Assembly (NCBI GenBank): GCA_947498985.1
Contig: CANMMF010000007.1
Location: 192,686 to 256,685, forward strand
Origin: an uncultured Rhodobacteraceae bacterium
GTDB lineage: Bacteria > Pseudomonadota > Alphaproteobacteria > Rhodobacterales > Rhodobacteraceae
DNA length: 64,000 nucleotides
Direction: 5' to 3'
Below are positions 1 to 60,259 of this stretch, one piece after another. A model generated the notes under the pieces. The model ran no database searches. It was not told the DNA's origin and saw nothing but the letters and a program-made list of their open reading frames with translations. Every line of letters starts with the position of its first letter. Positions within the stretch are counted from its first letter, which is position 1. A program made the translations under genes and the position numbers.

Positions 1-809
1 CTGCCGGTGGGGATGCTGCCGGCGCGCGCCAGCGTGTCGCGCATCAGCGTGGTTTCGGCGAGCCGTTCGAGAAACCCCGCGTGCCGGGCCGCGTCACGGG
101 CAAGCGCGCTGTCGCGGTCGCAATGCAGCACAACGATCCGCGTCGAGGGGCCCGGTGCGGGCAGCCGATTGCTGTACCACCAGCCGCTTTCGCCCGCCTC
201 GATCCGGGTGAGCGCGTCGATGTCGTCATCGGCGTCGGTCTGAAAGCGCAGCGCATAGGCAAAGAGCGGATCGGGGCGCAGATGGGTGATCCCGAACAGC
301 CTTGAGACCGCGGCGGCGCGCCCGGTGGCGTCGATCAGATAGCGGGCCACCGCGTCCCCGTCAGAGAGCCGCAGCGCCCAAAACTCGCCGTCATAGGTGG
401 CCTCCGTCACCGCAACGCCGCGCAGCACCGTGACCCCCTGCGCCTCGGCCCGCGCGACCAGCGCGGCATCGAGGCCGACACGGTCGACGCAGAGCCCGGT
501 GCCGTAAGGGTTGAAATCATGGCCCTGCTCGGCCGGGAAGGCCGCGCCCCAGACCGAAAGCGTGCCCCGGTTGGGCGCAGCCCAGCAGGGCAGCATGTCT
601 TGACCGAGCGAGCTCAGCAGCCCTTCGAGTTGCGGTTTGGCACCGGGCGCCAGCGTCTCGGCAAAGCTGAGGCGCGGTGCTGCGCGCTTGTCGACCAGCA
701 GCACCTGCCGCCCGGCGCGCGCCAGCCCGATCGCCGTGGCCGCACCCGCCGGGCCCGCTCCGGCGATCACCGCGTCATATGCCGCCTGGTGTTCAGCTTT
801 CGGCGTCAT
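1..809 (-). CDS. LodB-like FAD-dependent flavoprotein; only the 5' part lies in the window (runs off the left edge)
   Basis: The minus-strand frame opens at ATG 809-807 and stays open to the window edge. It is absent from the ORF track because no stop lies inside the window. I scanned in-frame triplets for positions 3-420 and 541-600 and saw no stop. The N-terminus MTPKAEHQAAYDAVIAGAGPAGAATAIGLARAGRQVLLVDKR is a GxGxxG dinucleotide-binding fold. The start overlaps the stop of the LodA-like gene by 17 nt, as in lodA-lodB pairs. Confidence 0.7.
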   Translation of the reverse strand, partial: MTPKAEHQAAYDAVIAGAGPAGAATAIGLARAGRQVLLVDKRAAPRLSFAETLAPGAKPQLEGLLSSLGQDMLPCWAAPNRGTLSVWGAAFPAEQGHDFNPYGTGLCVDRVGLDAALVARAEAQGVTVLRGVAVTEATYDGEFWALRLSDGDAVARYLIDATGRAAAVSRLFGITHLRPDPLFAYALRFQTDADDDIDALTRIEAGESGWWYSNRLPAPGPSTRIVVLHCDRDSALARDAARHAGFLERLAETTLMRDTLARAGSIPTG

Positions 810-3027
810 CGGGGCTGCATGCCAGCGTCGAGGGCATCTCTGGCGCGCTGTTGAGCGCCGGGTTGCGTTCGTATTCGCGGTAGGCCACGGCGTTGCGGAC
901 GGTAACGACGCGGCCCTCGTCGTCGCGTTGCGGCAGCACCATGCCCAGCTTGTCCCACGCATAGACCATCTGGTCATAGCCATCCGAGCCCGAGAGCACC
1001 TCGCCTTCGGCATCGAAACCGCGGAACCATTCGCGATAGCTGCGTTGACCGTCGGCATAATCGACCGTGCCGTCTCCCGCCGTGCCAGCGCCGTCAGGGT
1101 AGAACTCGAAGACGATGTCGGGGCGCTGGACCGGCCACCAGGCGACGTTGCAGGACCAGTAATCGCCCTGCCACGGGCTCGACATGAAGGCCGCGACAGA
1201 GCCGGGCACGGTGCCGCCTTTGACGCGAAACGCCTCTTCGAAAAAAGCGCGGTAGCAGATGAGATAGGGAAACTCGATGCCCGGGTGAAAGCCGCCGCCG
1301 ATGGTCGGCTCGAGCGCGGCGCAATCCAGCGCCATGGGCTGCTCGGCCAAAGGGTAGTCCTGCAGCGGTCTTGGCACCGGGGCTGCGTCGCCCGAGACCA
1401 CAAAATCGCCATTGGCCCAGTTCTGCAGATGCGCCAGCGCGTTGGCGGTCAGGCTCAGGTACTGGTTGGGCAGATCATGGCCAAGCTGCTGGTTCTGCAA
1501 GGGTTTTCCCGCCGTTCCCCAGAGCTTGGGCATCTTGTTGCCGCGCGCGGTGCGACCGGCCTGAAGCGCGCCCGGCGCCGGGGCCGATACCGGCGGCGGA
1601 TCGGTGGGCAGCGTGTCGATGAGCCGCGCAAACCCCGCCACCTGCTTTTGCAACGGCGTTTGCGGGTCGGGATAGCTCTGGTCGCGGTCGCCGGGATCGG
1701 CCTGCCGCATGATCCGGAAGATCTGCTGGCGGGTCCGCATGGCCTCCGATGCGGGGTCGGGATCCGGATCCAGAAACCGCGCCATGTTGCGGTCGCTCAG
1801 CAGGTTGCCCGCCTGTTTCGGCCCATGCGCGAGGTTGCGATTCTGCGGCGTCACGCCCCCCGCCTCGGCGCTGACCCAGCCGTAATTCACCGCGCGCGCC
1901 AGCGGCGGGTAGACGTCGCGCCAGAATTCGGTCCGCGCGCCTTCGGCAAGGCTCGGATCGGCCTCCGGGAACGCCTCGAAGACGCGGTCCTTGATCGACA
2001 CCACATGATACATGTCGGGGGCGAATTTCGGCGGCGCGGTCACGATCCAGCCGCCAGCCTTCGGGTCGCGTATGCCGTCCGGCCGGGTGGTGAGCACGCT
2101 GCCGTCGTCGAAGGTCACGGTTGCGTCTATCTCGCCGCCGCAGGTGTCGTCCCACCAGCCGGGCACGTTGAAATAGGCAAACTGGTTGATCAGCGGCTGA
2201 TAGGCGTGATCATTGCCGTCCGGCGCGTTCATGATGGTGTCGCCATTGGGCGGGTTATGCGCCTCGGACGGGTTGGACAGGCAGATCGGCGGCGTGGTCA
2301 CACATTCCGCCTTGCCGGGTCCTGCAATGAAGATGAGTCGCCCGGCCGCGTCCAGTTGCAGCCGCCCGAGTTCGATCCCTTCGCGGCGGGCATAGCGCAC
2401 GTCCACCCAGCCATCGGCGTCGGGGGTCACCGGCGTGCCGAAGCGCAGGTCGCCGGGAAGTTTCGAACTCAGCCCGTCAGGAAAGCAGCCGCCGCGCAGG
2501 GCGATCTCGGCCTGATCCTCGGACGACGACATCTGATGCGCGCCGGGATTGATGATCAGGTCCGAGCGCATGGCAGGATCGGCAGATGCGCCTTTGGCCG
2601 GGCCTTGGATGTTTGGATTGCGCATCTGCGTCGCGTCAAAGAGATACGCCCCCTGAAAGGCGAAATTCGCGGCTTTCAGGTTCTGCACATGCACGCGCCA
2701 GGTGATGTCGGTGACGCCGGGCGTGTCGGTGGTGATCTCGACCGTGTCGCCCGCGCTGTTCACGCCGTAAAGCCGGAAGCGCTGCGCCTGACGCTTGAGA
2801 TCCATCCCGGCGTCGCGGTAGGTGCCGCCATTGGGCCCCGGCCCGTCGCCGCGTTCGGGCGAGTTCGGGTTGCCGGGATCGACCACGATCCCCGGCGCCT
2901 CCGGGCCGATATAGAAGTTCTGGTTGAGCACAAGCGGCGCGTCCGAGCCGTCGCCGCTGTTGCCCACACGCGCAATCCCGATGCCGGGATGCACGCGAAG
3001 CGAGGTGATGTCGCTGGCCATCGTCAT
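793..3027 (-). CDS. LodA/GoxA-family quinoprotein amino-acid oxidase (L-lysine 6-oxidase-like, CTQ cofactor), 744 aa
   Basis: Track ORF 793..3168 was trimmed to ATG 3027, which has GAAGGG a few nt upstream. The N-terminus MTMASDITSLRVHPGIGIARVGNS matches the conserved N-terminal signature I recall for the LodA family. Size is about 745 aa. It is followed by an overlapping flavoprotein gene. Confidence 0.75.
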   Translation of the reverse strand: MTMASDITSLRVHPGIGIARVGNSGDGSDAPLVLNQNFYIGPEAPGIVVDPGNPNSPERGDGPGPNGGTYRDAGMDLKRQAQRFRLYGVNSAGDTVEITTDTPGVTDITWRVHVQNLKAANFAFQGAYLFDATQMRNPNIQGPAKGASADPAMRSDLIINPGAHQMSSSEDQAEIALRGGCFPDGLSSKLPGDLRFGTPVTPDADGWVDVRYARREGIELGRLQLDAAGRLIFIAGPGKAECVTTPPICLSNPSEAHNPPNGDTIMNAPDGNDHAYQPLINQFAYFNVPGWWDDTCGGEIDATVTFDDGSVLTTRPDGIRDPKAGGWIVTAPPKFAPDMYHVVSIKDRVFEAFPEADPSLAEGARTEFWRDVYPPLARAVNYGWVSAEAGGVTPQNRNLAHGPKQAGNLLSDRNMARFLDPDPDPASEAMRTRQQIFRIMRQADPGDRDQSYPDPQTPLQKQVAGFARLIDTLPTDPPPVSAPAPGALQAGRTARGNKMPKLWGTAGKPLQNQQLGHDLPNQYLSLTANALAHLQNWANGDFVVSGDAAPVPRPLQDYPLAEQPMALDCAALEPTIGGGFHPGIEFPYLICYRAFFEEAFRVKGGTVPGSVAAFMSSPWQGDYWSCNVAWWPVQRPDIVFEFYPDGAGTAGDGTVDYADGQRSYREWFRGFDAEGEVLSGSDGYDQMVYAWDKLGMVLPQRDDEGRVVTVRNAVAYREYERNPALNSAPEMPSTLACSPDDAES

Positions 3028-3080
3028 TGTCCCTTCAGGCGCGGCGTTGTCGCCGTCTGTTCTGGTCGCGGCTGCGCCGC

Positions 3081-3368
3081 CTACATCGGCGTCGCGCTTT
3101 CGACGAACCACGTCGTGGCGTCGCGCGACGACACGCGCAGCCGGTTGCCGCGGTTTTCGATCACGCACACGGTCCGTCCCTGCGCCACATGCGTGGAGCG
3201 CAGCTCAAAGCCGCTGCCGAAATGTGCGTGAATGCTCCGTGTCATTTTCTGCGTTACCTGCTGCATCCGGTGCCGGTCGGGTGCGGCAGGTGCGGAAAAC
3301 GCAGGTGTCACGTGTGAGATCGCGGTGCCTCCGGCGCTCAGAAGAGCAAGAAAATGCCGCCGTTTCAT
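3081..3368 (-). CDS. small hypothetical protein with twin-arginine (Tat) signal, 95 aa
   Basis: MKRRHFLALLSAGGTAISHVTPAFSAPA is a twin-arginine signal (RR followed by a hydrophobic stretch and an AxA-like cleavage site). It lies 53 nt upstream of the LodA-like start on the same strand. I recognise no family. Confidence 0.5.
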   Translation of the reverse strand: MKRRHFLALLSAGGTAISHVTPAFSAPAAPDRHRMQQVTQKMTRSIHAHFGSGFELRSTHVAQGRTVCVIENRGNRLRVSSRDATTWFVESATPM

Positions 3369-4034: not shown

Positions 4035-4910
4035 ATGTCCCCTGAGTGGCAGATCCAAATGAAAACCGGTCTGATTGTCAGCCTCGCCATTATCGCTCTG
4101 GTTCTGGCCGGGCTTTACATGTGGCGGCTGCGCGATCACCGGGCGGACCGTGCCGAGGCCGCGCGTCTTCTCGCGCTTGAGGCGGTCGATCCTCCGGTCT
4201 TCACCCGGAGCCTTGTTGCGGCGCTGCCGGAGCCTGCCAGGCGCTATTTTCTCTTTGTCATCAAGGAGGGCACACCGCTTCACCGGGTTGCACGGATCGA
4301 CATGCGGGGCTCGTTCGGGCTCGGAACGCGGGACGCGCCCAGCTATATGCAGATGTCGGCGACGCAGGTGCTTGCGGCGCCACACGGGTTTGTCTGGAAA
4401 ATGTCCGGAGGCTCGGGTTTCATGCGCATTTCCGGTTCCGACAGCGGCGGCTGGACGCGCTTCTGGCTGGCCGGTGTGGCCCCCGTGGCGCGCGCCGGTG
4501 GAACGCCGGATCACCGGTTGTCTGGATTTGCGCGCTACGTCTCCGAAGCGGTGTTCTGGACACCGGCTGCGGTCCTGCCGGGCCCGGGGGTGCGCTGGGA
4601 AGCGGTGGACGAGACCACCGCGCGGGTGACCATCACACATGACGGCCAGACGCAGGCGGTTGATGTGACCGTCGATGCCGAGGGCCGGCCAACTGAAGTT
4701 GTGTTGCAAAGGTGGAGCGACGCCAATCCGGACGGCGTGTTCCGGTTCCAGCCCTTCGGCGGCCATCTTTCGGAGTTTCGCGACTTCGGCGGGTTCCGGC
4801 TGCCGACCCATGTGGAGGCGGGCAACTTCTTTGGCACGCAGGCCTATTTCCCGTTCTTCATCGCCGACGTCACGGATATCCGCTTTGCCGGAGCGACCGG
4901 AGCGCGCTAA
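4035..4910 (+). CDS. membrane-anchored hypothetical protein (DUF6544-like)
   Basis: 291-aa ORF with an N-terminal TM helix (KTGLIVSLAIIALVLAGLYMW) followed by a soluble domain. It resembles the DUF6544 family as I recall it. An alternative start is ATG 4059 (MKTGL...). Confidence 0.6.
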   Translation: MSPEWQIQMKTGLIVSLAIIALVLAGLYMWRLRDHRADRAEAARLLALEAVDPPVFTRSLVAALPEPARRYFLFVIKEGTPLHRVARIDMRGSFGLGTRDAPSYMQMSATQVLAAPHGFVWKMSGGSGFMRISGSDSGGWTRFWLAGVAPVARAGGTPDHRLSGFARYVSEAVFWTPAAVLPGPGVRWEAVDETTARVTITHDGQTQAVDVTVDAEGRPTEVVLQRWSDANPDGVFRFQPFGGHLSEFRDFGGFRLPTHVEAGNFFGTQAYFPFFIADVTDIRFAGATGAR

Positions 4911-5166
4911 TGCCGCCCGGAAGATGCACCCGACACCGTCCGGGCGACGGCGCCGCCAGACATCCGATTTCGCAGGTGACGCCTTTGTCGATCCCACGCG
5001 AGCGCCGGGGGACCCTACCCAAAATCCGCGCATCCGGCGCCGGGTTTTGATGCTCCGCCCGCAAACTGCGCCTGTTTTTTCAGCATCGCATGCGCCCCTG
5101 GCCGGTTTCCGCCGCGCGGCCTTGCCTCACCCGCGGCGCTGGCGCGAGCATCGGGGGGCAGGACAT

Positions 5167-5268
5167 CTAGGGTTCCGCCTTGGCAATCTGGCAAGGGCAC
5201 TGGTCCGAGAGATGTCGCCCGAATGGCAAATTCCATCTGGTACACGGCGGGGCAAAATCCCGGGAGAG
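5167..5268 (+). promoter_or_regulatory. guanidine-I riboswitch (ykkC-yxkD leader) aptamer
   Basis: CTAGGGTTCCGCCTTGGCAATCTGGCAAGGGCACTGGTCCGAGAGATGTCGCCCGAATGGCAAATTCCATCTGGTACACGGCGGGGCAAAATCCCGGGAGAG contains the hallmark blocks CUAGGGUUCCG, GGUCCGAGAG and ACACGGCGGG..AAAA.CCCGGGAGA in the right order. Helices are visible (CCTTGCC/GGCAAGG and CCC/GGG). It sits about 90 nt upstream of the ABC binding-protein start. Confidence 0.88.
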
Positions 5269-5359
5269 CACTGCACCTCAGGCAAGGCCGCACTCTCCTG
5301 TTCCGCCACGGCTCCTTTGGTCCTCTCATCCAGGCGGAACGTCGCGAAGGGGTCTCCTT

Positions 5360-6418
5360 ATGCAAGTTCTCGGTCATATCATGGGTGGCGCCGCTGCGCT
5401 GTTGATTGGCACTGCCAGCCTCGCAACCGCGCAGGAAAAAACCGACTTTCGGGTGGCGTGGTCGATCTATGTCGGCTGGATGCCATGGGGGTATCTGGAG
5501 GCCTCCGGCATCATGGACAAATGGGCCGCGAAATATGGCATCGATATCGAGATCGTGCAGATCAACGATTATGTCGAGTCGATCAACCAGTATACCGCAG
5601 GCGCGTTTGACGGGGTCTCGGCCACCAACATGGACACGCTGTCCATTCCCTCGGGCGGCGGCGTCGACACGACCGCGCTGATTGTGGGCGACTTCTCCAA
5701 TGGCAATGACGCGGTGATCCTGAAAGGCGAGGGTACTCTGGCGGATCTTGCAGGCAAGCCCGTGAACCTGGTGGAGCTTTCGGTCTCGCATTACCTGCTG
5801 GCGCGCGGGCTGGACAGCGTGGGGCTGCGCGAGGCGGATCTCGGCAGTGTGATCAACACGTCCGACGCTGACATGATTGCCGCCTTCCAGACCGATGACG
5901 TCGAGGCGGTGGTCACCTGGAACCCGCTCGTCTCGACGATCCTCGAGGATCCGGGCGCGACCAAGCTTTTCGACAGTTCCGATATCCCCGGCGAGATCAT
6001 CGACCTGATGGTGGTCAACACCGACACGCTGGCGGCCAATCCGGATTTCGGCAAGGCGATGGTCGGGGCGTGGTACGAGGTCATGGCGCTGATGGCCGCA
6101 GGCGACGAGGCGGCGCTGAGCGCGATGGCCGAGGCGTCGGGCACGGATCTCGACGGCTACAAGGCGCAGCTTGCCTCAACCGAGATGTTCTACGATCCGG
6201 CAGATGCGGTGGCCTTCACGCAAAGCCCGGCCTTGCCGGAAACGATGGTCAGCGTGGCCGGGTTCCTCTTCGACAAGGGCATCCTTGGTGAAGGCGCGCC
6301 GTCTGCGGATTTTGTCGGTGTGGCCTACCCGGACGGCTCGGTCACCGGGGATGAGAACAACGTCCAGTTCCGCTTTGACACCACCTACATGCAGATGGCC
6401 GCCGACGGCGCGTTGTAA
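5360..6418 (+). CDS. ABC transporter substrate-binding protein, NitT/TauT family (candidate guanidine-binding protein), 352 aa
   Basis: Trimmed to ATG 5360 (GAAGGGG upstream). Signal peptide MQVLGHIMGGAAALLIGTASLATAQE. The body resembles NitT/TauT-type periplasmic binding proteins. It is the first gene after the riboswitch. Confidence 0.8.
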   Translation: MQVLGHIMGGAAALLIGTASLATAQEKTDFRVAWSIYVGWMPWGYLEASGIMDKWAAKYGIDIEIVQINDYVESINQYTAGAFDGVSATNMDTLSIPSGGGVDTTALIVGDFSNGNDAVILKGEGTLADLAGKPVNLVELSVSHYLLARGLDSVGLREADLGSVINTSDADMIAAFQTDDVEAVVTWNPLVSTILEDPGATKLFDSSDIPGEIIDLMVVNTDTLAANPDFGKAMVGAWYEVMALMAAGDEAALSAMAEASGTDLDGYKAQLASTEMFYDPADAVAFTQSPALPETMVSVAGFLFDKGILGEGAPSADFVGVAYPDGSVTGDENNVQFRFDTTYMQMAADGAL

Positions 6419-6436
6419 GCGCGGCGCGGCACGGCC

Positions 6437-7255
6437 ATGGGCATGAGACTGATCAATCGCCAGCCGGGGGTGGCGCTGAAGACGGCGCTCACCATCCTGC
6501 CGTTCCTCGTGGCGTTCATCGCCTACTGGATCGGCTCGGAGATCCGGCTGGCCGAAAATCCGTCCGACAAGCTGCTGCCCTCGCCCGCCAGGATCGCCGC
6601 CACCGCCGAGCGGCTCTTTACCGAACCCGACCGCCGGTCGGACCGCATTCTGCTCTGGCACGACACCGGTGCAAGCCTGATGCGGCTGGCGCTGGGCGTC
6701 GGCATATCCGCGGTGCTGGCCACGCTTGTCGGTCTGCTGATCGGGCTCTTGCCGCATATGCGCGCGACGCTCGCGGGCTTTGTGGCGGTGCTGTCGATGA
6801 TCCCGCCGCTGGCCATCCTGCCGATCCTCTTCATCGTGTTCGGACTGGGTGAGTTGTCCAAGGTGGTGCTGATCATTGTCGGCATCCTGCCGTTTCTCAT
6901 CCGCGATCTGAGCCAGCGCGTTCTCGACATCCCGCGCGAGATGATCGTGAAGGCAGAGACGCTGGGGGCGTCCTCGCTGGTGATCGCGCTGCGGGTTGCC
7001 CTGCCGCAGCTTCTGCCGCGGCTCATTCAATCGGTGCGGCTGTCACTCGGCCCGGCCTGGCTGTTTCTCATCGCCGCCGAGGCCATCGCGTCGGAGGTGG
7101 GTCTTGGCTACCGCATCTTTCTGGTGCGCCGGTTTCTGGCGATGGACGTGATCCTCACCTACGTGCTCTGGATCACCTTGCTGGCGTTCTTGATGGACCT
7201 CGCGCTGCGCACGCTCTCGCGCAAGGCATTCCCCTGGACGGAGGCAAGCCTGTGA
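6437..7255 (+). CDS. ABC transporter permease (NitT/TauT family)
   Basis: 272-aa polytopic membrane protein with a BPD-type permease signature region (...EAIASEVGLGYRIF...). Confidence 0.85.
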   Translation: MGMRLINRQPGVALKTALTILPFLVAFIAYWIGSEIRLAENPSDKLLPSPARIAATAERLFTEPDRRSDRILLWHDTGASLMRLALGVGISAVLATLVGLLIGLLPHMRATLAGFVAVLSMIPPLAILPILFIVFGLGELSKVVLIIVGILPFLIRDLSQRVLDIPREMIVKAETLGASSLVIALRVALPQLLPRLIQSVRLSLGPAWLFLIAAEAIASEVGLGYRIFLVRRFLAMDVILTYVLWITLLAFLMDLALRTLSRKAFPWTEASL

Positions 7256-8019
7256 GTTTTGTCACCGCAGAGAATGTATTTCAGTCCTACGGCAACCGGC
7301 CGATCCTTGAGCGGGTGAACCTTGCGGTGGATGAAGGCGCGTTTGTCTCGATTGTCGGCGCGTCGGGATGCGGCAAGTCGACCTTTCTACGCCTGTTGCT
7401 GGCGCAGGAACAGCCGACACGCGGAGAGATCCGGATCGCAGGTGCCCCGCCCGCCGCGGAGCCCGGCCTCGACCGGGGGGTGGTGTTCCAGAAATACTCC
7501 GTCTTCCCGCATATGAGCGTGCGCGACAACATCATCGCAGGTGAAAGCTTTCGCACCGTCACGGGTGTCTTCCGGGGCGCCCAAAAGGCCGCGGCGCGGG
7601 AGCGCGCGCAGGCAACGCTGGCGCGCATCGGTCTCGATCACGTCGCGGACCACTACCCCGCGACCCTGTCGGGCGGCATGCAGCAACGCCTCGCGATCGG
7701 GCAGGCGCTCGCGGCCAAGCCTCGGATCCTGCTGCTCGATGAGCCGTTCGGCGCGCTCGATCCCGGCACGCGCCTGTCGATGCATGACTTCCTGACCGAA
7801 TTGCGCCGCGAAACCGCGATGACGGTCTTCATGGTCACCCATGACCTCGAAGAGGGGTTCAAGCTCGGCGACCGGGTTCTGGTCTTCGACAAGCCCCGGT
7901 GGGACCCCACCGAGCCAGATGCCTTCGGCGCAACCATCACCTACGATTTCGACGCCAGAGACGGCGGCATCCCGTTTCAACGCAGTGAGGAGCACACATA
8001 TGTACGTCGCCCCGCCTGA
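7252..8019 (+). CDS. ABC transporter ATP-binding protein
   Basis: Walker A GASGCGKST, signature LSGGMQQR, Walker B LLLDEP. The GTG start overlaps the permease stop (GTGA). GGAGG lies upstream. Confidence 0.9.
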   Translation: MSFVTAENVFQSYGNRPILERVNLAVDEGAFVSIVGASGCGKSTFLRLLLAQEQPTRGEIRIAGAPPAAEPGLDRGVVFQKYSVFPHMSVRDNIIAGESFRTVTGVFRGAQKAAARERAQATLARIGLDHVADHYPATLSGGMQQRLAIGQALAAKPRILLLDEPFGALDPGTRLSMHDFLTELRRETAMTVFMVTHDLEEGFKLGDRVLVFDKPRWDPTEPDAFGATITYDFDARDGGIPFQRSEEHTYVRRPA

Positions 8020-9244
8020 CCGCACGCGGTCACACCACCCCAGGGACCTGCGCCACGACGCGCGCCGGGCCCACCATCCGGACCTGACCAGGCTGCAGGG
8101 CTGGCGGTCGATGAAGGCCGAGGCCGACCTGCCCGAAGGCCGTTGGGACGAAGAGCGGCGCTGGGCGCTGCGCATGGGTCTCACCGGGGCCGACAGCATC
8201 GAGGACAAGTCCATTCCCACCTTCGCGCGCGGAGAGCTGCCGCATTACGCCGGGATCAACACCTTTCTCAAGGCGCCCTACGCCGAGGACGTCACCGAGG
8301 TGAAGGACTATGACGCAACCGTGCTCGGGATCCCGTTCGACGGCGGCACGACCTACCGCCCGGGCACCCGCTTTGGCCCTCAAGGGGTGCGCAAGATCTC
8401 CGCGCTCTACACGCCCTACAATTACGAAATGGGTGTCGATCTGCGCGAGCAGATGACGCTCTGCGATGCGGGCGACGTGTTCACGATCCCGGCCAATCTG
8501 GAAAAATCCTTCGATCAGATCAGCCGCGCGGTGAGCCACGTCTTTTCGTCCGGCTCGCTGCCGGTGATGATCGGCGGCGACCATTCCATCGGGTTTCCCT
8601 GCGTGCGCGGCATTGCCGAATGCACGTCGAAAAAGATCGGCATCGTGCATTTCGACCGGCACGCCGACATTCAGGAAAAGGATCTCGACGAGCGCATGCA
8701 CACCACGCCGTGGTTTCACTCCACCAACCTGCCAAACGTGCCCGCGCGCAACCTCGTTCAGGTCGGCATCGGCGGCTGGCAGGTCCCCAGAGAGGCGGTC
8801 AAGGTCGCGCGCGAGCGCGAGACCAACATCATCACCATGTCCGACATGGAGGCGATGGGCGTCGACAAGACCGCCGAAATGGCGCTGGAGATGGCGTGGG
8901 ACGGCGTCGACATGGTCTACATGTCCTTCGATATCGACAGCATCGATTGCGGTTTTGTGCCGGGCACGGGCTGGCCCGAACCCGGTGGTTTCCTGCCGCG
9001 AGAGGCGCTGGCGCTGGCCTCGAAGGTCGCCGCCGAAGGCATTTGCGGCATGGAACTGGTCGAGGTCTCGCCGCCCTACGACACGTCCGACATCACCGCG
9101 CTGATGGGCACAAGGGTAATCGTGGATGTGCTGGGCAGCCTTGTTGCCTCGGGCAATCTGGGCAAGCACAAGGCGCATATCGACAAGCCCGTCAGCATTC
9201 CGCATGGCGCATTCGAAGGAAAGCGGTGGTCCAATGCCACATGA
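8000..9244 (+). CDS. arginase/agmatinase/ureohydrolase-family hydrolase (candidate guanidine hydrolase, GdmH-like), 414 aa
   Basis: ATG 8000 has GAGGAG 8 nt upstream. The metal-site motifs of the arginase fold are present: IGGDHSIGF, HFDRHADI, SFDIDSIDCGFVPGTG. The N-terminal ~37 aa are His/Arg-rich (RSHHPRDLRHDARRAHHPD) with coding-like third-position GC. An alternative start is ATG 8111. Confidence 0.85.
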   Translation: MYVAPPDRTRSHHPRDLRHDARRAHHPDLTRLQGWRSMKAEADLPEGRWDEERRWALRMGLTGADSIEDKSIPTFARGELPHYAGINTFLKAPYAEDVTEVKDYDATVLGIPFDGGTTYRPGTRFGPQGVRKISALYTPYNYEMGVDLREQMTLCDAGDVFTIPANLEKSFDQISRAVSHVFSSGSLPVMIGGDHSIGFPCVRGIAECTSKKIGIVHFDRHADIQEKDLDERMHTTPWFHSTNLPNVPARNLVQVGIGGWQVPREAVKVARERETNIITMSDMEAMGVDKTAEMALEMAWDGVDMVYMSFDIDSIDCGFVPGTGWPEPGGFLPREALALASKVAAEGICGMELVEVSPPYDTSDITALMGTRVIVDVLGSLVASGNLGKHKAHIDKPVSIPHGAFEGKRWSNAT

Positions 9245-9662
9245 CATCGTCGGCGGTCAAATCGGCCACAATCACGCGCATGATCACCTGCGCAGTCACC
9301 TCAAGCCCGAGGATGAGGCCGCGGAGCTGCAGGTGCTGGCCGCGCAATTCATCGACGGGTTCGTCGCCGCCAAGGACAAGATGTCCTATCTGCGGCTGGC
9401 CGGCGTGCCGCTGGAACGCCCCGAGCCGGGGGGCGGCGCGATGATGAAGCTTGTGGACGTGCAACTGAGCACCGAATGGCAGGTCGGCACGGCTTCTCCG
9501 TCCTTTGGGTCAAGGGAGCTGAGCTATCTGCCCTATCCGGGAGAGATGGTGACCGAACGCACCAATCTGGGGTTTGTCTACGTGTCGCTGGACAGCAAAC
9601 ATGTGGTCGATCTGCGCAGCTTCCTGCATGACCGCCACGCGCATGAGGACGGCGCCGGTTAG
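9234..9662 (+). CDS. His-rich hypothetical protein, 142 aa (candidate metallochaperone)
   Basis: ATG 9234 overlaps the hydrolase stop by 11 nt. His clusters sit at both ends (GHNHAHDHLRSH ... HDRHAHEDG). I recognise no family. Confidence 0.6.
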   Translation: MPHDIVGGQIGHNHAHDHLRSHLKPEDEAAELQVLAAQFIDGFVAAKDKMSYLRLAGVPLERPEPGGGAMMKLVDVQLSTEWQVGTASPSFGSRELSYLPYPGEMVTERTNLGFVYVSLDSKHVVDLRSFLHDRHAHEDGAG

Positions 9663-10290
9663 GCCGCGCGCGTCGGGTTCGAACGCCGTGTCGGACATGC
9701 CCAGCGGGTCGAAGATCTCGGCCTGGCAGAACTCGACGATGGCGCGGCCATCCGCTTTCCCGACCACTTGTCCCGGCCAGTCGATGCTTGTCCCCTATCC
9801 CCAGCGCGTGCCCGGATCGGACATCAGCGGGTTCATCAGCGACGCCTTCGCCCCGGAGTGGATCGGCCTCGCCCCGGTCACTTCCAGGTATTTCGCCATG
9901 TCGGCGTTCCAAAACTCGTATTCCAGACTGCTGGTAAGGGTCGCGAGGTTCCGGATCGTGGCGGTTGTGTTCCGGGCGCGCAGTCTCCGGCGTGTCGCCA
10001 TCCCAGCCATCCAGAATCTCAAGCTCGTCCAAGGCGGGCAGGATCTCGGCAACGGGTCTGTCCATCGACAACTTGCCCTGGTCGATCAGGATCATCGCGG
10101 CCACAGAGCCCACCGACTTGGTCATCGAGAAGATGCGGAACGCCGTGTCTTCCCCGGCGGCGCGCCCTTCGGAGGCCTGACCGGCCGCCCCGGAATAGCG
10201 CACCCCGTTGGTGTCGGCGGCCATGGCCAGGACAAAGGGGACATCGCCCGACGAAACGGCCGCCTTCAGAACATCATCCATCCCTGACAT
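9663..10290 (-). pseudogene. serine hydrolase (class C beta-lactamase/esterase family) pseudogene
   Basis: The N-terminal part is intact and carries the SxxK motif (FSMTKSVGSVAAMILIDQG). There is a frameshift near 9990: the text continues in another frame as RLRARNTTATIRNLATLTSSLEYEFWN. An in-frame TAG lies at 9795-9797. Homology stops at ...PLGMSDTAFEPDAR, exactly at the end of the neighbouring gene (9662), so roughly the C-terminal half is missing. Confidence 0.75.
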
Positions 10291-10538
10291 CACATCCTGC
10301 CTCACCTTGCCCGGCTCAGTGTCTCCGCAGAGGTGCCGTGCGTCACTGGCACCTTGCCGCCGGTCGCGGGCGCGGCGGGGTGCCCGTCGGCCGTTGTTTC
10401 CAAGGTCGTGTGGCCCGGAGACGGCGGACCGGATGGACGGCGCTCGGCCGGATCACGCGAACCGGTCACCGGCCAAGGGCCAAACCGGTGCATGCGCGCC
10501 GCCATACTTTGCGCATTCACGCGACAGGCCCACGCGAG

Positions 10539-10816: not shown

Positions 10817-11515
10817 TCAGCGTGCGTCGGAAAGAAAACTGCGGATCGCCTGCGCGTCGATCCGGGCGCTCTGATGCGCCTCGGGACGTGTCCCGGGGGC
10901 CAGCGCGCGCGCCACCTTTTCGTATTCCTCAAGGTAGTTGGGCGGCAGCTTGTGCGCGATGCCCTGATGGCAGTCGATGCAGGTCATGCCCTGATCGATC
11001 GCGCGCTGGTGCTCCGACCCGGCGCGGACCTCCTGCATGGTGAAATCCATGTATTCGAACGCATGGCAATTGCGGCATTCGCGGCTGTCGGAGGCCTTCA
11101 TCTTCTTCCAGACCGCCATTGCCATCTTGGTGCGCCGCGCCTCGTATTTCTCGGCGGTGTCGATGCTGCCGGTGATCTCGTAGAAGATGTCCTTCACCGC
11201 GATGGCCTTGGCCTTCATCTTGTGGTTCCACTCCTTGGGCACATGGCAGTCAGAGCACACCGCCCGCACACCGGAATGGTTGTTGTAATGCACGGTCTCG
11301 CGGTATTCACCGAGGTTGGTCTCCATGCTGTGGCAGGACACGCAGAATTCCTCGGAATTGGACGCCGCCACCGACCAGTTGAATCCGCCCCAGAACAGGA
11401 TACCCGCCATGAACCCGGCGATCAGCACGAACCCGACGCTGAGCACCGATGACGGGGTCCAGAACCAGTCCCAGATGCGGCGCAAGGCACCGCGCGTGTC
11501 GTTAGGGTCGGCCAT
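10817..11515 (-). CDS. napC: NapC tetraheme cytochrome c quinol dehydrogenase
   Basis: N-terminal TM anchor plus four CxxCH motifs (CVSCH, CSDCH, CRNCH, CIDCH). Confidence 0.92.
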   Translation of the reverse strand: MADPNDTRGALRRIWDWFWTPSSVLSVGFVLIAGFMAGILFWGGFNWSVAASNSEEFCVSCHSMETNLGEYRETVHYNNHSGVRAVCSDCHVPKEWNHKMKAKAIAVKDIFYEITGSIDTAEKYEARRTKMAMAVWKKMKASDSRECRNCHAFEYMDFTMQEVRAGSEHQRAIDQGMTCIDCHQGIAHKLPPNYLEEYEKVARALAPGTRPEAHQSARIDAQAIRSFLSDAR

Positions 11516-11541
11516 GGGGAGCCCTCCTTCTTATGTCCGGG

Positions 11542-11979
11542 TCAATTGTCGGGCGAGGCGCGGAAGATGTTGTTCACAAGGCTCGGGGCATCGACCTGCG
11601 GCACATGGCACTGATTGCAGAAATACCGGGTGCCCGCGATGTGATCGAGCTCATTGCCGTCGCGGTCGAGATAATGGGTCATCGACAGGGTCGGTGCGTT
11701 GCGCTCTCCGGCCTTGGTCCAGTCATGGCAGCTCAGGCACTGGTTGGCGCGCAGATCGATCTGGTATTGCTCGATGGAATGCGGGATCAGCGGCGGCTGC
11801 TGGCGGTAGTTGCGCTGCATGCGCCGCTCGACATTCTGGTAGGCCTTCCCGGGCACAACCGGATCATCCACCGCGGCACCCCGCAAAGAATAGACATCCG
11901 AGGTTTGGGCAACGGCAAGGCCGCCAGCCGCCAGAAGCGTCGCAAGCACGATATGGCTCAGTCTGATCGGCGTTTTCAT
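11542..11979 (-). CDS. napB: NapB diheme cytochrome c subunit
   Basis: Signal peptide and two CxxCH motifs (CLSCH, CNQCH). 145 aa. Confidence 0.9.
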   Translation of the reverse strand: MKTPIRLSHIVLATLLAAGGLAVAQTSDVYSLRGAAVDDPVVPGKAYQNVERRMQRNYRQQPPLIPHSIEQYQIDLRANQCLSCHDWTKAGERNAPTLSMTHYLDRDGNELDHIAGTRYFCNQCHVPQVDAPSLVNNIFRASPDN

Positions 11980-12045
11980 GAGACGATTCCCTTTGTTGTC
12001 ATGCCGCCTGGTTGTCCGGCGCCGGTGGTAGATCTGCGAGGCCGG

Positions 12046-12906
12046 TCACGGCGTCGTCGAACCGAGGGTGAATTTGAAGACGTCCATCGCGCACACGTCG
12101 ATGCAGCGGCCGCAATTGGTGCAATCGGGAGAGAGGACAAGCGGCGAGGTGCCGGGCTTGCCTTTCAGCGCGGGCGAGATGACCTGGTTTTCCGGGCAGA
12201 CATGGTAGCAATCCATGCAGTCGTCGCAGGCGGCCCGCGCGGGCGCGCTGACGCGCAGAACGGATTTGGTGCCGACCAGCCCGTAAAACGCGCCGACCGG
12301 GCAGAGATGCCCGCACCAGCCGCGCCGGGCGACCACCAGATCGAAGACGAAGATCAAGAGGACCAGCGCCCAGACAAACCCCATGCCGAAGATCAGCCCG
12401 CGGTGCAGCATCGTGACCGGGTTCACGGCTTCCCAGGCGATGGTGCCGGTGAGACCAGAGACCACGAGCGCCGCGCCGAGCAGCCAGAGCCGCGTGCCGC
12501 GTCTGGGCTGCCAACCTTTCGGCAGGCCAAGGCGCTTGTGCAGCCAGAAGGCGCCATCCGTCACCGGGTTGATCGGGCACACCCAGGCGCAATAGCTCCG
12601 CCCGCCAAGAAGCGCGTAGGCCGCCAGAACGATCCCGGCACCGATCAGCGCGGTCAGTTCGGGCCAGTGCCCGGCGACAAGGCTCTGGGCGGCGACGAAC
12701 GGGTCGGTGAGCGGCAGGATGTTCAGCGTGAGCGACCCCGCCAGCGTGCCTTGGGTGATCCAGAGGCCAAACCACGGGCCGCTCAGGAACAGCGCAAGAA
12801 AGAAGAGCTGGCTCGCGCGGCGCAGCAGCAGGTAGCGATGCGCGCTCAGCCAGCCTTTTGTCTCGCGGGCCTCGGCGCCGGCCGGAGAATGCGTGCGCGC
12901 GCTCAT
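12046..12906 (-). CDS. napH: NapH membrane-bound ferredoxin-type quinol dehydrogenase
   Basis: Four TM segments and Cys clusters (CPINP, CGHLCP, CxxCxxCxxxCP twice). Overlaps the napG stop (ATGA). Confidence 0.88.
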
Positions 12907-13721
12907 TGGCCTGCCCCGTCAAGCCGGAACGCGGGCTCGAACCCGCCTGGCGCCACCAGGTTGTCGGTGCCCGGGCCGGGCAGCCGGTCAGGCAGGTCGA
13001 TCACACCCTCGACAAGCGGCGCGCCGCGGGCGTCCTTTTCCTCCCAGCCGCGGCGGTAGTGATCGGCCGTTTCCGCGCGCGCCAGCCGCACCGGCAGCAC
13101 TTTGATCGCCGCTTCGGGCAAGACGCAGCTGTGCTCGCATTTGCCGCAGCCGGTGCAATGTTCCGCATGCACGGTGGGCGCAAAGGTCGCGTGATGGCCC
13201 GAACGTGAGTTGTGCGAGGCCTTGAGCGTAATCGCCTCGTCGATCACCGGGCAGACCCGGTAGCAGACATCGCAGCGCAGCCCGAGAAAGTTGAGACAGT
13301 TTTCCTGATCGACCAGAACCGCGACGCCCATCTGCGCGTCGTCGATATCCTCCAGCGACGCGTCGAGCGCGCCGGTCGGGCAGGCCGCGACGCAGGGGAT
13401 GTCCTCGCACATCTCGCACGGGACATCGCGCGCGGTGAAATAGGGCGTGCCCGTGGCCGCGCCATCGATGCCCAGTTCGGCCAGTTTCAGTGTGTCGTAA
13501 GGACAGCCGCGCATGCACAGGCCACAGCGGATGCAGGCCGACAGGAACGCGTCTTCGTCAAGCGCTCCGGGCGGGCGGATCGCGTCTGCAGGCAGCGCGC
13601 GGGCATCCCGGGCGAGATAGGCCAGCGCAGAGCCCGCAAGCACGCAGCCGCCCGCCGCCCGCGCCGTGTCCGTGAGGAACCGGCGGCGGCTGGCAGAGCG
13701 CAGAGTGTCGAGCATGGGCAT
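12903..13721 (-). CDS. napG: NapG periplasmic ferredoxin-type protein
   Basis: Trimmed to ATG 13721 ([18 protein letters not shown], a Tat signal). Four 4Fe-4S Cys motifs. Confidence 0.88.
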
Positions 13722-13746
13722 CGCTTGGTCTATTCCCCGGACCCGA

Positions 13747-16251
13747 TCAGGCCCGGACCACCCGGCAGGCGCATTTCTTGAAATCGGTCTCTTTCGAGAT
13801 CGGGCAGGTGGCGTCGAGCACAAGCTTGTTGGTCAGCTGTCCCTCATCGAACCACGGCATGAACACGACCCCCGGCGGCATCTTGTTGCGACCGCGGGTT
13901 TCGACGCGGCTCAGAACCACACCGCGACGGGTCGAGATCTCGATCTCCTGTCCGCGTCGCACACCGCGGTCACGGGCGTCATCGGGATGCATGTAGACCA
14001 CCGCCGCCGGGAAGGAGCGGTGCAGCTCCGGCACGCGGCGGGTCATCGAGCCCGAATGCCAGTGCTCCAGCACCCGGCCGGTCACAAGCCAGAGGTCATA
14101 TTCCTCGTCGGGCATCTCGGCAGGCGGCTCGTAGGGGGCAAAGATGATGTTGGCGCGCCCGTCGGGTTTGCCGTAAAACCGAACGCCTTCGCCTTCGGGC
14201 ACATACGGGTCATAGCCTTCGCGGAAGCGGTAGAGCGTTTCCTGCCCGTCCACCACGGGCCAGCGCAGCCCGCGCGCGTTGTGGTAGACATCGAACTCGG
14301 CAAGATCATGCGCCTTGCCGCGCCCGAACTCCGCGTATTCCTCGAACAGCCCCTTCTGGACGTAAAAGCCGAAATCCTGGCTTTCCTGGTTGTTGAAGCC
14401 TTCGGCGACCTCGCTCACCGGGTATTTGTCGACCGTGCCATTTGTGAACAGCACCTCGTAGAGCGTCTTGCCGCGCAGCTCGGGCATTTGCGACAACAGC
14501 TCCTCGCCCCAGGCCTCTTCGGTGGTGAAGCGCTTGGAGAACTCCATGACCTGCCAGAGATCCGACCGGGAGTCGCCCGGGGCGTCGACCTGCTGGCGCC
14601 AGAATTGCGTGCGCCGCTCGGCATTGCCGTAAGCGCCCTCCTTCTCGACCCACATGGCGGTGGGCAGGATCAGATCCGCGGTCATCGCGGTGACCGTGGG
14701 GTAGGGCTCAGAGACGGTGATGAAATTTTCGGGGTTCCGGTAGCCCGGGATCCCCTCCTCGTTCATGTTGGGTGCCGCTTGCAGGTTGTTGTTGCACTGC
14801 ACCCAATGGCAGTTGAGCTCGCCATCCTTGAGTTTGCGGTGCTGCAACACGGCGTGAAAGCCGGGCTTGGACGGGATGGTGCCCGCCGGGACACCCCAGG
14901 CGGTCTCGCAGATCTCGCGGTGGGCGTCGTTCATCACCACCATGTCGGCGGGCAGACGGTGGGCGAAGGTGCCCACTTCGCGCGCGGTGCCACAGGCCGA
15001 CGGCTGTCCGGTGAGCGAGAAGGGCGAGTTGCCGGGCTCCGCGATCTTTCCGGTCAGCAGGTGGATATTGTAGAGCAGCCCGTTGACCCAGGAGCCGCGC
15101 GTGTGCTGGTTGAACCCCATGGTCCAGAGGCTCATGACCTTGCGGTCGGGATCGGCATATTGCTTCGCGAGCCGCTCGAGGCTCGCTGCGGGCACACCCG
15201 ACAGCCCGGACACCTTGTCGAGCGTGTAGTCGCTGACGGCCGCGGCGTATTCGTCAAAGCTCATCGGGTCGAGCTTGCCGTGCTTGCCTTCATGCGAGGG
15301 GTTCTCGGCGGCCTGCTCGAGCGGGTGCGTGGGCCGCAGCCCATAGCCGATATCGGTGGCCGTGCGGGTGATGTTCACGTGATTGGCGACGAACTCCTCG
15401 TTCACCGCACCGGTCTGGATGATGTAATTCGCGATGTAGTTCAGGATCGCGAGATCGGTCTGCGGAGTGAAAATCATGCCGTTATCGGCCAGCTCGAAGG
15501 ACCGGTGCTCGAAGGTCGACAGCACATGCACCTCTGCACCGGGCTTGGTCAGGCGCGTGTCGGTCAGGCGCGACCAGAGGATCGGGTGCATCTCGGCCAT
15601 GTTCGAGCCCCAGAGCACAAAGGTGTCGGCATGCTCGAGATCGTCATAGCAGCCCATCGGCTCGTCGATGCCGAAGGCGCGGATGAAGGCGGCCACGGCA
15701 GAGGCCATGCAGTGGCGCGCGTTGGGGTCGATATTGTTGGACCGCAGCCCGGCTTTCATGAACTTGGCGGCGGCATACCCTTCCCAGACGGTCCATTGAC
15801 CGGACCCGAAGATGGAGACCGCGCTCGGCCCCTTGTCGCGCAGCGCCGCCTTCCATTTCTCGGCCATGACGTCAAAGGCTTCGTCCCAGCTGACCGGCTC
15901 GAAACGTCCGTTCTTGTCGAAGACACCGTTCGACTTGCGCAGCAGCGGCGTGGTCAGACGGTCTTCGCCATACATGATCTTGGACAGGAAATAGCCCTTG
16001 ATGCAGTTCAGCCCGCGGTTCACCGGGGCATCGGGGTCGCCTTGCGTGGCCACGACGCGGCCCGCCTTGGTGCCGACCAGAACCGAGCAGCCGGTGCCGC
16101 AGAACCGGCAGGCCGCCTTGTCCCAGCGGATATCCGATCCCGTCGTCTGCGCCGCCGCCTGACCTGTCGCGAGCGGGATACCGGCAGCGGAGGCCGTCGC
16201 GGCGGCGGCGCTGGCCTTCAGAAAGCTGCGGCGCGAATTAGATATGGTCAT
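13747..16251 (-). CDS. napA: NapA periplasmic nitrate reductase catalytic subunit
   Basis: Trimmed to ATG 16251 ([24 protein letters not shown], a Tat signal). N-terminal CRFCGTGC 4Fe-4S motif. 834 aa molybdopterin oxidoreductase. Confidence 0.95.
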
Positions 16252-16540
16252 TGTGCTGGCCTCCGTTTGGGCGGGAAAGAGGTGACGGCCGGGCGGCATC
16301 GGGGCTGCCGGTCTCTTCGAAATGGTGATAGGTCAGCGTCAGCGAGACGACGCCCGGGATCTGGTGCAGATCCATGATGATTTCGGAGGCAAACCGGGTC
16401 GCGGTGTCTTCGACGACAACCACGATCCGCCCGTCCTCGTTCTGCGCGTGCACTTCCGCGCCCTCCGTGGCGTCGATCGCGTGGATCGCTGCCGCGGCGC
16501 TGTCGGGCACGACATGCACAAGGCATCCGCAAATATTCAT
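16238..16540 (-). CDS. napD: NapD chaperone
   Basis: [10 protein letters not shown]... is the typical NapD N-terminus. Overlaps the napA start and the napF stop. Confidence 0.85.
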
Positions 16541-17543: not shown

Positions 17544-17575
17544 TCAAAACCAGGTGACGCAAGGCACGGCGTCAC
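17544..17575 (-). terminator. candidate intrinsic terminator after the ANL-CphA-like gene
   Basis: Minus strand reads GTGACGC-CGTGCCTT-GCGTCAC followed by CTGGTTTTG. The 7-bp stem overlaps the TGA stop (17572-17574). The U-tract is short. Confidence 0.45.
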
Positions 17576-20880: not shown

Positions 20881-21098
20881 CTGAAAAACACCAATAACGT
20901 TTGACTCAATTTACTCTGGAACACTGTCAAAAATTTGCCGCCGCAGGGTGGGGCGTGGACCATTCTATGGCTTCTATCGGGCAGGCGGCCGCGAAATGGT
21001 GGCATTTGCCGGACGGGTCCTGCAAGCGCGAATGCGCGGCGGACCGTGGGGCGGTCAGGCATCCGGCACCCATTTGGCGCGCGTGACGCCCGCAATGG

Positions 21099-23075: not shown

Positions 23076-23078
23076 GGC

Positions 23079-60101: not shown

Positions 60102-60259
60102 TCCCGCCGCGCCCTGAAGGCCGCGATGCGGCAGGGCACAAGCAAGCACTGGGATTGCAACCCGCCATCGGATGCAAGCCAGCAAAATGTGCGCAACCGC
60201 GTGGACTGGACGGTGGTCGCCAACCGCTACCGCGATCCCCGCCTGAAGGACGACGCCCA

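Follow-up and report, generated by a model that had tools for sequence, protein, structure and literature searches.

How does a guanidine hydrolase of the arginase fold obtain its metal when no HypA/HypB-type maturase is encoded beside it? This question is raised by a stretch of 64,000 nucleotides from an uncultured Rhodobacteraceae bacterium (assembly GCA_947498985.1, contig CANMMF010000007.1, positions 192,686 to 256,685), which is referred to below, at its full length, as the window. Within it a guanidine-I riboswitch is followed by the genes for an ABC importer, for a hydrolase of the GdmH type and for a small His-rich protein, designated ORF5 here. The region is best explained as a self-contained, guanidine-inducible cassette for the use of guanidine as nitrogen source. 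We further consider it probable, at roughly 0.6, that guanidine is taken up and hydrolyzed here by a GdmH which is matured by ORF5, acting as a new and GTPase-independent nickel chaperone. ORF5 is a real and widespread protein, and its gene is a near-obligate neighbor of gdmH.

The guanidine cassette and its hydrolase

The cassette is composed of the following features:

5156-5268, plus strand: guanidine-I (ykkC) riboswitch aptamer (Rfam RF00442)
5269-5359, plus strand: expression platform, ~91 nt from the aptamer to the start of gimA; it contains two conserved hairpins and a GGGG box that resembles a Shine-Dalgarno sequence
5360-6418, plus strand: gimA-type periplasmic guanidine-binding protein of the NitT/TauT family, 352 aa (TIGR03427)
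6437-7255, plus strand: gimB-type ABC permease, 272 aa (PF00528, BPD_transp_1)
7252-8019, plus strand: gimC-type ABC ATPase, 255 aa (PF00005, ABC_tran)
8000-9244, plus strand: gdmH, predicted arginase-fold guanidine hydrolase (guanidinase), 414 aa (PF00491, matches to guanidinases in the PDB)
8000-8110, plus strand: clade-specific, His-containing N-terminal extension of gdmH, 37 codons (conserved in frame)
9234-9662, plus strand: orf5, 142-aa His-rich protein of an undescribed, conserved family (no Pfam or NCBIfam match)

Each of the five products is identical to an NCBI protein, and all of them were called on one contig of 319,168 bp. Rfam, Pfam and NCBIfam scans recovered on the plus strand every element which a previous, sequence-only reading of this DNA had proposed, in the order proposed, and the tight packing with overlapping stops and starts described there corresponds to overlaps of 4 nt (gimB/gimC), 20 nt (gimC/gdmH) and 11 nt (gdmH/orf5). 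The anatomy of that reading was retained, and its coordinates had to be shifted slightly: the aptamer begins 11 nt before position 5167, and two gene starts were corrected. The hydrolase begins at ATG 8000 and not further in, because the 37 upstream codons are kept in frame in all related loci, where the codons before 8111 are free of stops in 116 of 116 cases; ATG 8111 was therefore rejected as the start. The His-rich ORF does not begin at 9126. Its N-terminus is instead encoded from ATG 9234, giving a sequence beginning with MPHD which is kept in 118 of 119 close homologues and matches the NCBI gene call, and with MPHD as the conserved N-terminus a start at ATG 9204 was rejected as well.

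The hydrolase belongs to the arginase fold (PF00491, E ~1e-75) and the motifs GGDHS, DRHAD and SFDIDSID that had been pointed out before are indeed found in its translation. Its best matches among PDB sequences are GdmH of Synechocystis (7esr/7oi1, E=6.7e-165) and the guanidinase of Nitrospira inopinata (9fek, E=1.1e-160), to which it is 66% and 63% identical, respectively. The next ureohydrolases, proclavaminate amidinohydrolase and guanidinobutyrase, follow at 4.7e-51 or weaker. All ten residues to which metal binding or guanidine hydrolysis has been ascribed (PMC11410670) are conserved, namely the di-metal ligands H182, D207, H209, D211, D299 and D301 and the residues proposed for guanidine hydrolysis, T105, H222, W313 and E344 (N. 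inopinata numbering). The same ten are also kept in the orf5-linked arginases of Ancylobacter, Devosia and one metagenome-assembled genome (MAG). Judged by its sequence the hydrolase is clearly a GdmH orthologue, and it is presumably Ni-dependent. Its N-terminal extension, which does not align to the Synechocystis or the N. inopinata enzyme, contains HHP in 115 and HHPD in 114 of 116 orf5-linked loci from several orders.

The importer is of a matching kind. The binding protein passed the TIGR03427 ABC_peri_uca equivalog model, which is tied to guanidine and urea-carboxylase operons, with 531.2 bits (cut-off 333.9), and it also matches Pfam NMT1_2 and NMT1; the nearest solved structures, those of taurine- and sulfonate-binding proteins, match it at no better than E ~6e-7. 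Directly after its gene follow those of the permease (BPD_transp_1, E=1.4e-16), whose cluster members are named NitT/TauT family permease, and of the ATPase (ABC_tran, E=5.7e-33). Assignment of the predicted importer to the guanidine type (GimABC/TIGR03427) is thus well supported. For GimA of Synechocystis, guanidine binding with a KD of ~97 nM was reported (PMC12704784).

The guanidine-I aptamer scored 71.9 bits against the RF00442 gathering cut-off of 63 (E=8.2e-11), covers model positions 1-107 of 107 without truncation and is the sole Rfam match in the whole window. It ends 91 nt before the gimA start on the same strand. The same riboswitch family was detected upstream of homologous operons in seven further loci (L003, L019, L036, L059, L071, L081 and L085; L numbers are our handles for related loci), and in Ancylobacter it lies directly upstream of the gdmH-orf5 pair. 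By analogy with other riboswitches of its class, it would act as an ON switch in response to guanidine. A comparison of 23 related leaders of the window's type showed conservation of the hairpins GGGAG/CUCUC and GUUCCGCC/GGCGGAAC and of the GGGG box; RNAalifold detected almost no covariation in these hairpins among the 23 leaders, the single-sequence fold of the platform was no better than that of shuffled sequence (z=0.59), and a terminator scan of the window's leader found no U-rich or canonical terminator.

Among Rhodobacterales two platform designs occur behind the same aptamer (leaders L024-L079 compared with window positions 5269-5359). The window-type platform combines GGGAGAG...CUCUCC with GUUCCGCC...GGCGGAAC, and the second type combines GGGAGGC...CCCUCC with UUGACC...GGUCAA and a AUGGGGACCGA box. 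A further variant was seen in Yoonia sediminilitoris (L071, ~4937-5200), where an almost direct fusion connects the riboswitch with the final ~20 codons of gimA (FRFDTTYMQMAADGDL*). Here gimA appears to be deleted, with gimB, gimC, gdmH and orf5 retained.

Because riboswitch class and importer type agree with the orthology of the hydrolase, we infer that the enzyme converts guanidine to urea and ammonium. The guanidine import and GdmH-type hydrolysis proposed in the sequence-only reading receive good support from the TIGR03427 pass, the guanidine-I aptamer, the 10/10 residues and the E-values against both solved guanidinases. That reading had also raised the alternative of a substituted-guanidine hydrolase, acting on methylguanidine, a guanidino acid or agmatine and not on free guanidine. 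Annotation points in this direction: the 90% cluster of the enzyme has 757 members, and every named one is called 'agmatinase' or 'agmatinase family protein'. The NCBIfam agmatinase models also match, below their thresholds (TIGR01230, 170.9 vs 174.3 bits; NF002564, 207.8 vs 302 bits), and the substrate assignment itself is sequence-based, which leaves this alternative some room. On the other side stand the high identity to two guanidine-specific enzymes with the complete residue pattern, including T105, H222, W313 and E344, the guanidine-type importer (TIGR03427; PMC12704784) and the guanidine-I aptamer, which reportedly ignores metabolites whose only likeness to guanidine is a guanidino group (PMC11410670). 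Riboswitch class and residue pattern disfavor the alternative, and we regard it as very improbable.

Missing maturases and a conserved neighbor of gdmH

According to the accessible literature every Ni-dependent ureohydrolase whose maturation is known relies on HypA/HypB-type proteins, and GdmH, MefH and DmgH require such chaperones (PMC12704784, PMC11399263, PMC10927577). For the comammox guanidinase no chaperone is known and its Ni loading was termed unclear by the authors (PMC11410670). The operon of the window contains no gene for HypA/HypB, urea carboxylase or allophanate hydrolase, as the sequence-only reading had stated. A scan with a regular-expression motif, which is not a profile and would miss very divergent GTPases, revealed no HypB-type GTPase signature in the window, and with a regular expression no HypB-type gene was found in 80 Rhodobacterales loci nor in the 1.64 Mb of 172 related loci. 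Likewise, 14 diverse neighborhoods with precomputed Pfam annotation contain no HypA or CobW-family match. The only G3E GTPases seen across the 172 loci are UreG, whose gene occurs in six loci of the Hyphomicrobiales type, and the product of a single CobW-like gene. Co-encoded HypA/HypB maturases are an accessory feature and not a defining one for the GdmH enzyme. The 'different maturation solution' suggested earlier was a supposition only; the conserved His-rich ORF beside gdmH now makes it concrete.

Linkage between the two genes was analyzed in loci found with ORF5. In 78 of 80 Rhodobacterales loci gdmH lies upstream of orf5, the other two being cut at a contig edge, and the full order gimA-gimB-gimC-gdmH-orf5 is kept wherever these loci have room for it. 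The gdmH-orf5 junctions of the 78 loci include 53 start/stop overlaps, 15 gaps of at most 150 nt and one gap of 213 nt. The picture was the same in 92 loci of wider origin (L081-L172), which came from Hyphomicrobiales, Rhodospirillales, Myxococcota-like and metagenomic sources and of which 87 were informative: in 84 of the 87, gdmH stands directly upstream of orf5 and encodes an enzyme 67-81% identical to that of the window. The three exceptions are an orf5 that follows a NicO transporter, a rearranged contig and a contig too short to judge. When loci were seeded with GdmH instead of ORF5 (Pseudooceanicola and Salipiger), both carried orf5. It is very likely that ORF5 is a functional partner of GdmH.

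None of the genes flanking the cassette in the window (LodA-like, DUF6544, bla-like, NapC/B) was found near it in any other locus. For this reason the stretch from the riboswitch to orf5 is the conserved unit, which is probably mobile.

Genes inserted between gdmH and orf5 encode in seven cases CMD-family proteins (carboxymuconolactone-decarboxylase/AhpD-like, ~133 aa, PF02627) and in two cases MBL-fold proteins (~300 aa, PF00753). The spacing between gdmH and orf5 is ~400 nt in L001, L018, L029, L039, L040, L047 and L048 and ~920 nt in L014 and L026.

ORF5 as a candidate nickel chaperone

A total of 1446 ORF5 homologues, all annotated as 'hypothetical', were found in a 90%-clustered database, and the family forms 131 clusters at 50% identity. 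Neither ORF5 nor 65 diverse relatives matched Pfam or NCBIfam, and a search of PDB sequences with the family profile returned nothing credible. The family can be divided into three subfamilies: a Rhodobacterales type (subfamily 1) which includes the window protein, a Hyphomicrobiales type (subfamily 2; Ancylobacter, Devosia, Pseudolabrys) and a type of Rhodospirillales and others (subfamily 3; Azospirillum, Magnetospira, a Myxococcota MAG). Subfamilies 2 and 3, at ~30% identity, are related with an hhalign probability of 99.9%. In the accessible literature, which does not extend to the founding Nature paper, we found no description of the family or of its near-obligate pairing with gdmH; nor did this literature mention a His-rich or otherwise alternative accessory protein of GdmH, although the founding paper (Funck et al., 2022, Nature) could do so.

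A model of ORF5 calculated with AlphaFold2 (AF2) from a 65-sequence alignment is confident, with a predicted local distance difference test (pLDDT) score of 88.3 and a predicted template modeling (pTM) score of 0.72. Residues 1-24 are disordered and are followed by two helices, a mostly antiparallel sheet and a C-terminal helix. A member of subfamily 2, modeled independently with AF2, shows this topology as well (pLDDT 79.5), preceded by a disordered, His-rich leader of 65 residues. ORF5 is thus predicted to consist of a confidently folded core of ~100 aa and variable His-rich tails. Nearly invariant positions of the core are F39, D48, L53, L55, P59, L73, G85, P89, P100 and Y116. A Foldseek comparison of the two models with the PDB gave best E-values of 0.49 and 0.039 at TM scores of at most 0.27; the matches to cystatin, COMM and Tudor folds were at chance level and no fold was assigned. 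Neither the sequence nor the fold searches placed ORF5 in the HypA, HypB/UreG/CobW G3E, UreE or SlyD families.

The connection to nickel derives from the tails and from the neighboring genes. Subfamily 1 has a median of eight tail His residues at the N-terminus, and 118 of 119 members start with MPHD. In subfamily 2 the median is 14 (up to 23), again at the N-terminus, with MH as the start of 103 of 113 members. The tails of subfamily 3 are C-terminal (median seven, up to 25 His) and its members mostly start with MDH or MTH. A GHN motif is present in nearly all members of subfamilies 1 and 2. The His residues of the window protein are located at positions 3, 12, 14, 16, 18, 22, 123, 132, 135 and 137. 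UreE, HypB, SlyD and HypA typically have flexible tails rich in His and a Met-His motif at the N-terminus; the likeness of ORF5 to these proteins is a functional analogy and not a family membership. Regarding gene neighborhoods, a HupE/UreJ nickel permease is encoded after orf5 in Devosia (together with a CDF exporter), Azospirillum and L090 and nearby in L127, L162 and L171. In one locus (L128) the gene for a NicO nickel transporter (68.7 bits) takes the place of gdmH ahead of the orf5 homologue, and in six soil-type loci of subfamily 2 (L099, L154, L158, L159, L162 and L171) ureG is convergent immediately after orf5. As a side observation, HupE/UreJ genes after or near orf5 are spread over several lineages (L083/L084/L124/L125, L087, L090, L127).

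These features would fit the following mechanism. Free guanidine would bind the guanidine-I aptamer and switch on the five downstream genes, GimABC, a NitT/TauT-type ABC importer, would bring guanidine into the cell, and GdmH would cleave it to urea and ammonium, with the urea passing to a urease encoded elsewhere. ORF5 would hold Ni(II) on its His-rich tail and N-terminal motif, dock on GdmH through its conserved core and, with no dedicated GTPase taking part, deliver the metal to the active site. The HHP...HHPD extension of GdmH is possibly involved in docking and might serve as a docking or relay site for ORF5.

Several points weigh against a chaperone role. The folded core has no invariant His or Cys, and ORF5 resembles neither HypA, UreE, SlyD nor any other metallochaperone in sequence or structure. 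Its tails are of low complexity and shift between the N- and the C-terminus; at most one tail His is found in 10 of 110 subfamily-3 members and in 16 of 81 representatives, fragments among the latter. A gene is inserted between gdmH and orf5 in nine of 80 Rhodobacterales loci, and direct translational coupling of the two, although usual, is therefore not universal. Known Ni-insertion systems usually include a GTPase, and the cassette has none. The use of Ni by the alphaproteobacterial GdmH clade is itself presumed, and hypA/hypB or ureEFG may be present elsewhere in these genomes, since the scans covered the window and the loci. Finally, the N. inopinata guanidinase is partly loaded with metal in E. 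coli without a chaperone (PMC11410670).

Some of these points would suit a GdmH partner which delivers no metal, that is, a non-catalytic assembly or stabilizing subunit or a regulator of the hexamer, with tails that are incidental or serve another use. The conserved part of ORF5 would then be expected to be a folded core lacking an invariant metal ligand, some members nearly devoid of tail His would cause no difficulty, and strict synteny with start/stop overlap is compatible with every kind of stoichiometric partner. Heteromeric ureohydrolases whose second subunit is inactive do exist, as MefH alpha/beta demonstrates (PMC11399263). However, such a partner leaves unexplained why nearly all members of two large subfamilies carry 8-23 tail His together with conserved GHN motifs and MH/MPH starts, and why the family is repeatedly associated with HupE, NicO and ureG. 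The characterized GdmH enzymes, moreover, are homohexamers which need no extra subunit (PMC11410670). We consider a purely structural or regulatory partner unlikely.

The opposite emphasis, on the tails alone, would make ORF5 an Hpn-like buffer or store of nickel or cobalt without specific hand-over, co-expressed to keep imported metal or to shield the cell; GdmH would then acquire its metal spontaneously or via UreE/F/G, the housekeeping accessory proteins of urease. Variable, low-complexity His-rich tails, the family member that follows NicO without gdmH and the six loci with adjacent ureG would agree with this, as would the N. inopinata guanidinase, which gains some Ni without a dedicated chaperone (PMC11410670). 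Yet a protein that only buffers metal would have no need of a conserved and well-folded domain of ~100 aa, and its gene would not be expected beside that of a single enzyme in >95% of loci from several orders. The GdmH of this clade, moreover, has special features that co-vary, among them the HHPD extension (114 of 116 loci). Mere buffering or storage seems to us quite improbable.

We therefore return to ORF5 as a nickel chaperone, which presumably binds Ni and transfers it to GdmH. The most far-reaching form of this proposal is that ORF5 defines a new family of nickel metallochaperones which work without a GTPase and have a fold not seen before, serving solely the Ni-dependent guanidine hydrolases of Alphaproteobacteria and some other phyla, docking on GdmH, possibly via the HHP...HHPD extension, and replacing GhaA/GhaB, which are of the HypA/HypB type. 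To this form we give about an even chance. If it is true, ORF5 represents a second, independent solution for the Ni loading of an arginase-fold enzyme.

Genomic surroundings and comparison with known systems

Upstream of the cassette the window encodes a LodA-like protein of the L-lysine epsilon-oxidase family (793-3204, minus strand; LodA_N and LodA_C) and a DUF6544/DUF6920 protein (4035-4910, plus strand); neither gene is linked to the cassette in other genomes. Convergent on orf5 lies a serine beta-lactamase-family gene (bla-like; 9665-10305, minus strand; PF00144), which is broken into at least three reading frames and cut at about profile position 189 of 329, exactly at the orf5 end. It looks like a pseudogene that was truncated by insertion of the cassette or by a rearrangement. 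Downstream of this remnant follows a periplasmic nitrate reductase cluster (10817-16332, minus strand) which encodes a NapC/NirT cytochrome, NapB, a 4Fe-4S protein resembling NapH and a molybdopterin subunit of the NapA type that carries a twin-arginine translocation (TAT) signal. Further on (17572-23078, minus strand), an AMP-binding enzyme fused to an ATP-grasp domain (~1100 aa) adjoins a RimK-like ATP-grasp protein (~660 aa), possibly forming an amide-bond or peptide-ligase pair. A single long ORF (59723-61924, plus strand) joins truncated pieces of three domains: profile positions 1-91 of 195 of a short-chain dehydrogenase, 136-237 of 274 of a BKACE beta-keto acid cleavage enzyme and 99-461 of 461 of an aldehyde dehydrogenase. 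This mosaic suggests gene remnants fused by deletions or an assembly artefact.

Guanidine has been recognized only lately as a widespread nitrogen source, and its hydrolysis was described in cyanobacteria, with a requirement for HypA/HypB-like maturases, and in comammox Nitrospira. The findings indicate that the hydrolase route is common in marine representatives of the Roseobacter group and in soil Alphaproteobacteria, where today the enzyme is annotated as 'agmatinase', with 757 sequences in its 90% cluster alone, and its partner as 'hypothetical protein'. With orf5, one small and cloneable gene becomes the likely missing maturation factor, and Ni supply without HypA/HypB becomes testable. 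The expression of active guanidinase in ethylene- or guanidine-producing strains could also benefit from orf5.

The closest known system is that of Synechocystis sp. PCC 6803, whose locus comprises a guanidine-I riboswitch, gdmH (sll1077), ghaA, ghaB and gimABC (sll1080-1082). Both loci share the riboswitch class, an orthologous hydrolase (66%), a NitT/TauT ABC importer and the logic of sensing, importing and hydrolyzing (PMC12704784, PMC12186494). In the window, however, the order is reversed, with the importer first and all genes in one tightly overlapping unit. Instead of ghaA/ghaB, which are missing, an unrelated 142-aa His-rich protein is encoded after gdmH, and GdmH has the additional N-terminal HHP...HHPD extension that does not align to the cyanobacterial enzyme. 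The operon of N. inopinata consists of a guanidine-I riboswitch, an APC permease and the guanidinase; it resembles the window in its riboswitch-controlled GdmH-type guanidinase (63%) and in having no HypA/HypB-type chaperone nearby (PMC11410670). Whereas the comammox operon uses an APC-family permease and no accessory gene was reported, the window combines an ABC importer with a conserved candidate accessory gene.

In Pseudomonas and Aminobacter, the operons for hydrolases of metformin and dimethylguanidine contain hypA, hypB, the alpha and beta genes of mefH/dmgH and hupE. They likewise encode Ni-dependent arginase-fold hydrolases acting on guanidine-type substrates, with dedicated accessory genes and HupE within the operon (PMC11399263, PMC10927577), and a HupE gene also follows gdmH-orf5 in Devosia, Azospirillum and L090. 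In contrast to the window, their enzymes are heteromeric and match its GdmH with only ~1e-37 to 1e-39, their accessory proteins are canonical HypA/HypB and no guanidine riboswitch was reported there. Guanidine carboxylase operons carry a ykkC riboswitch, a TIGR03427-type importer and genes for guanidine carboxylase, carboxyguanidine deiminase and allophanate hydrolase, and have the riboswitch class, the TIGR03427 binding protein and nitrogen assimilation from guanidine in common with the window (PMC12186494). The window differs by its predicted ATP-independent hydrolase, and carboxylase, deiminase and allophanate hydrolase genes are not part of its operon.

As to ORF5, the nickel chaperones UreE, HypB, SlyD and HypA (with N-terminal MHE) are small cytoplasmic proteins encoded beside their Ni-enzyme client, with a variable and flexible His-rich tail and a Met-His motif. 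Like these, ORF5 of subfamily 2 starts with MH in 103 of 113 members. Unlike these, it has no sequence or fold likeness to them, no partner GTPase in the cassette and no conserved Cys or His in its core. The combination of riboswitch, Gim importer and GdmH is a known system type, and its alphaproteobacterial prevalence under the name 'agmatinase' is an annotation gap and not a discovery. New with respect to the accessible literature are the ORF5 family and its pairing with gdmH, and there is a substantial chance that ORF5 represents a new class of metallochaperones.

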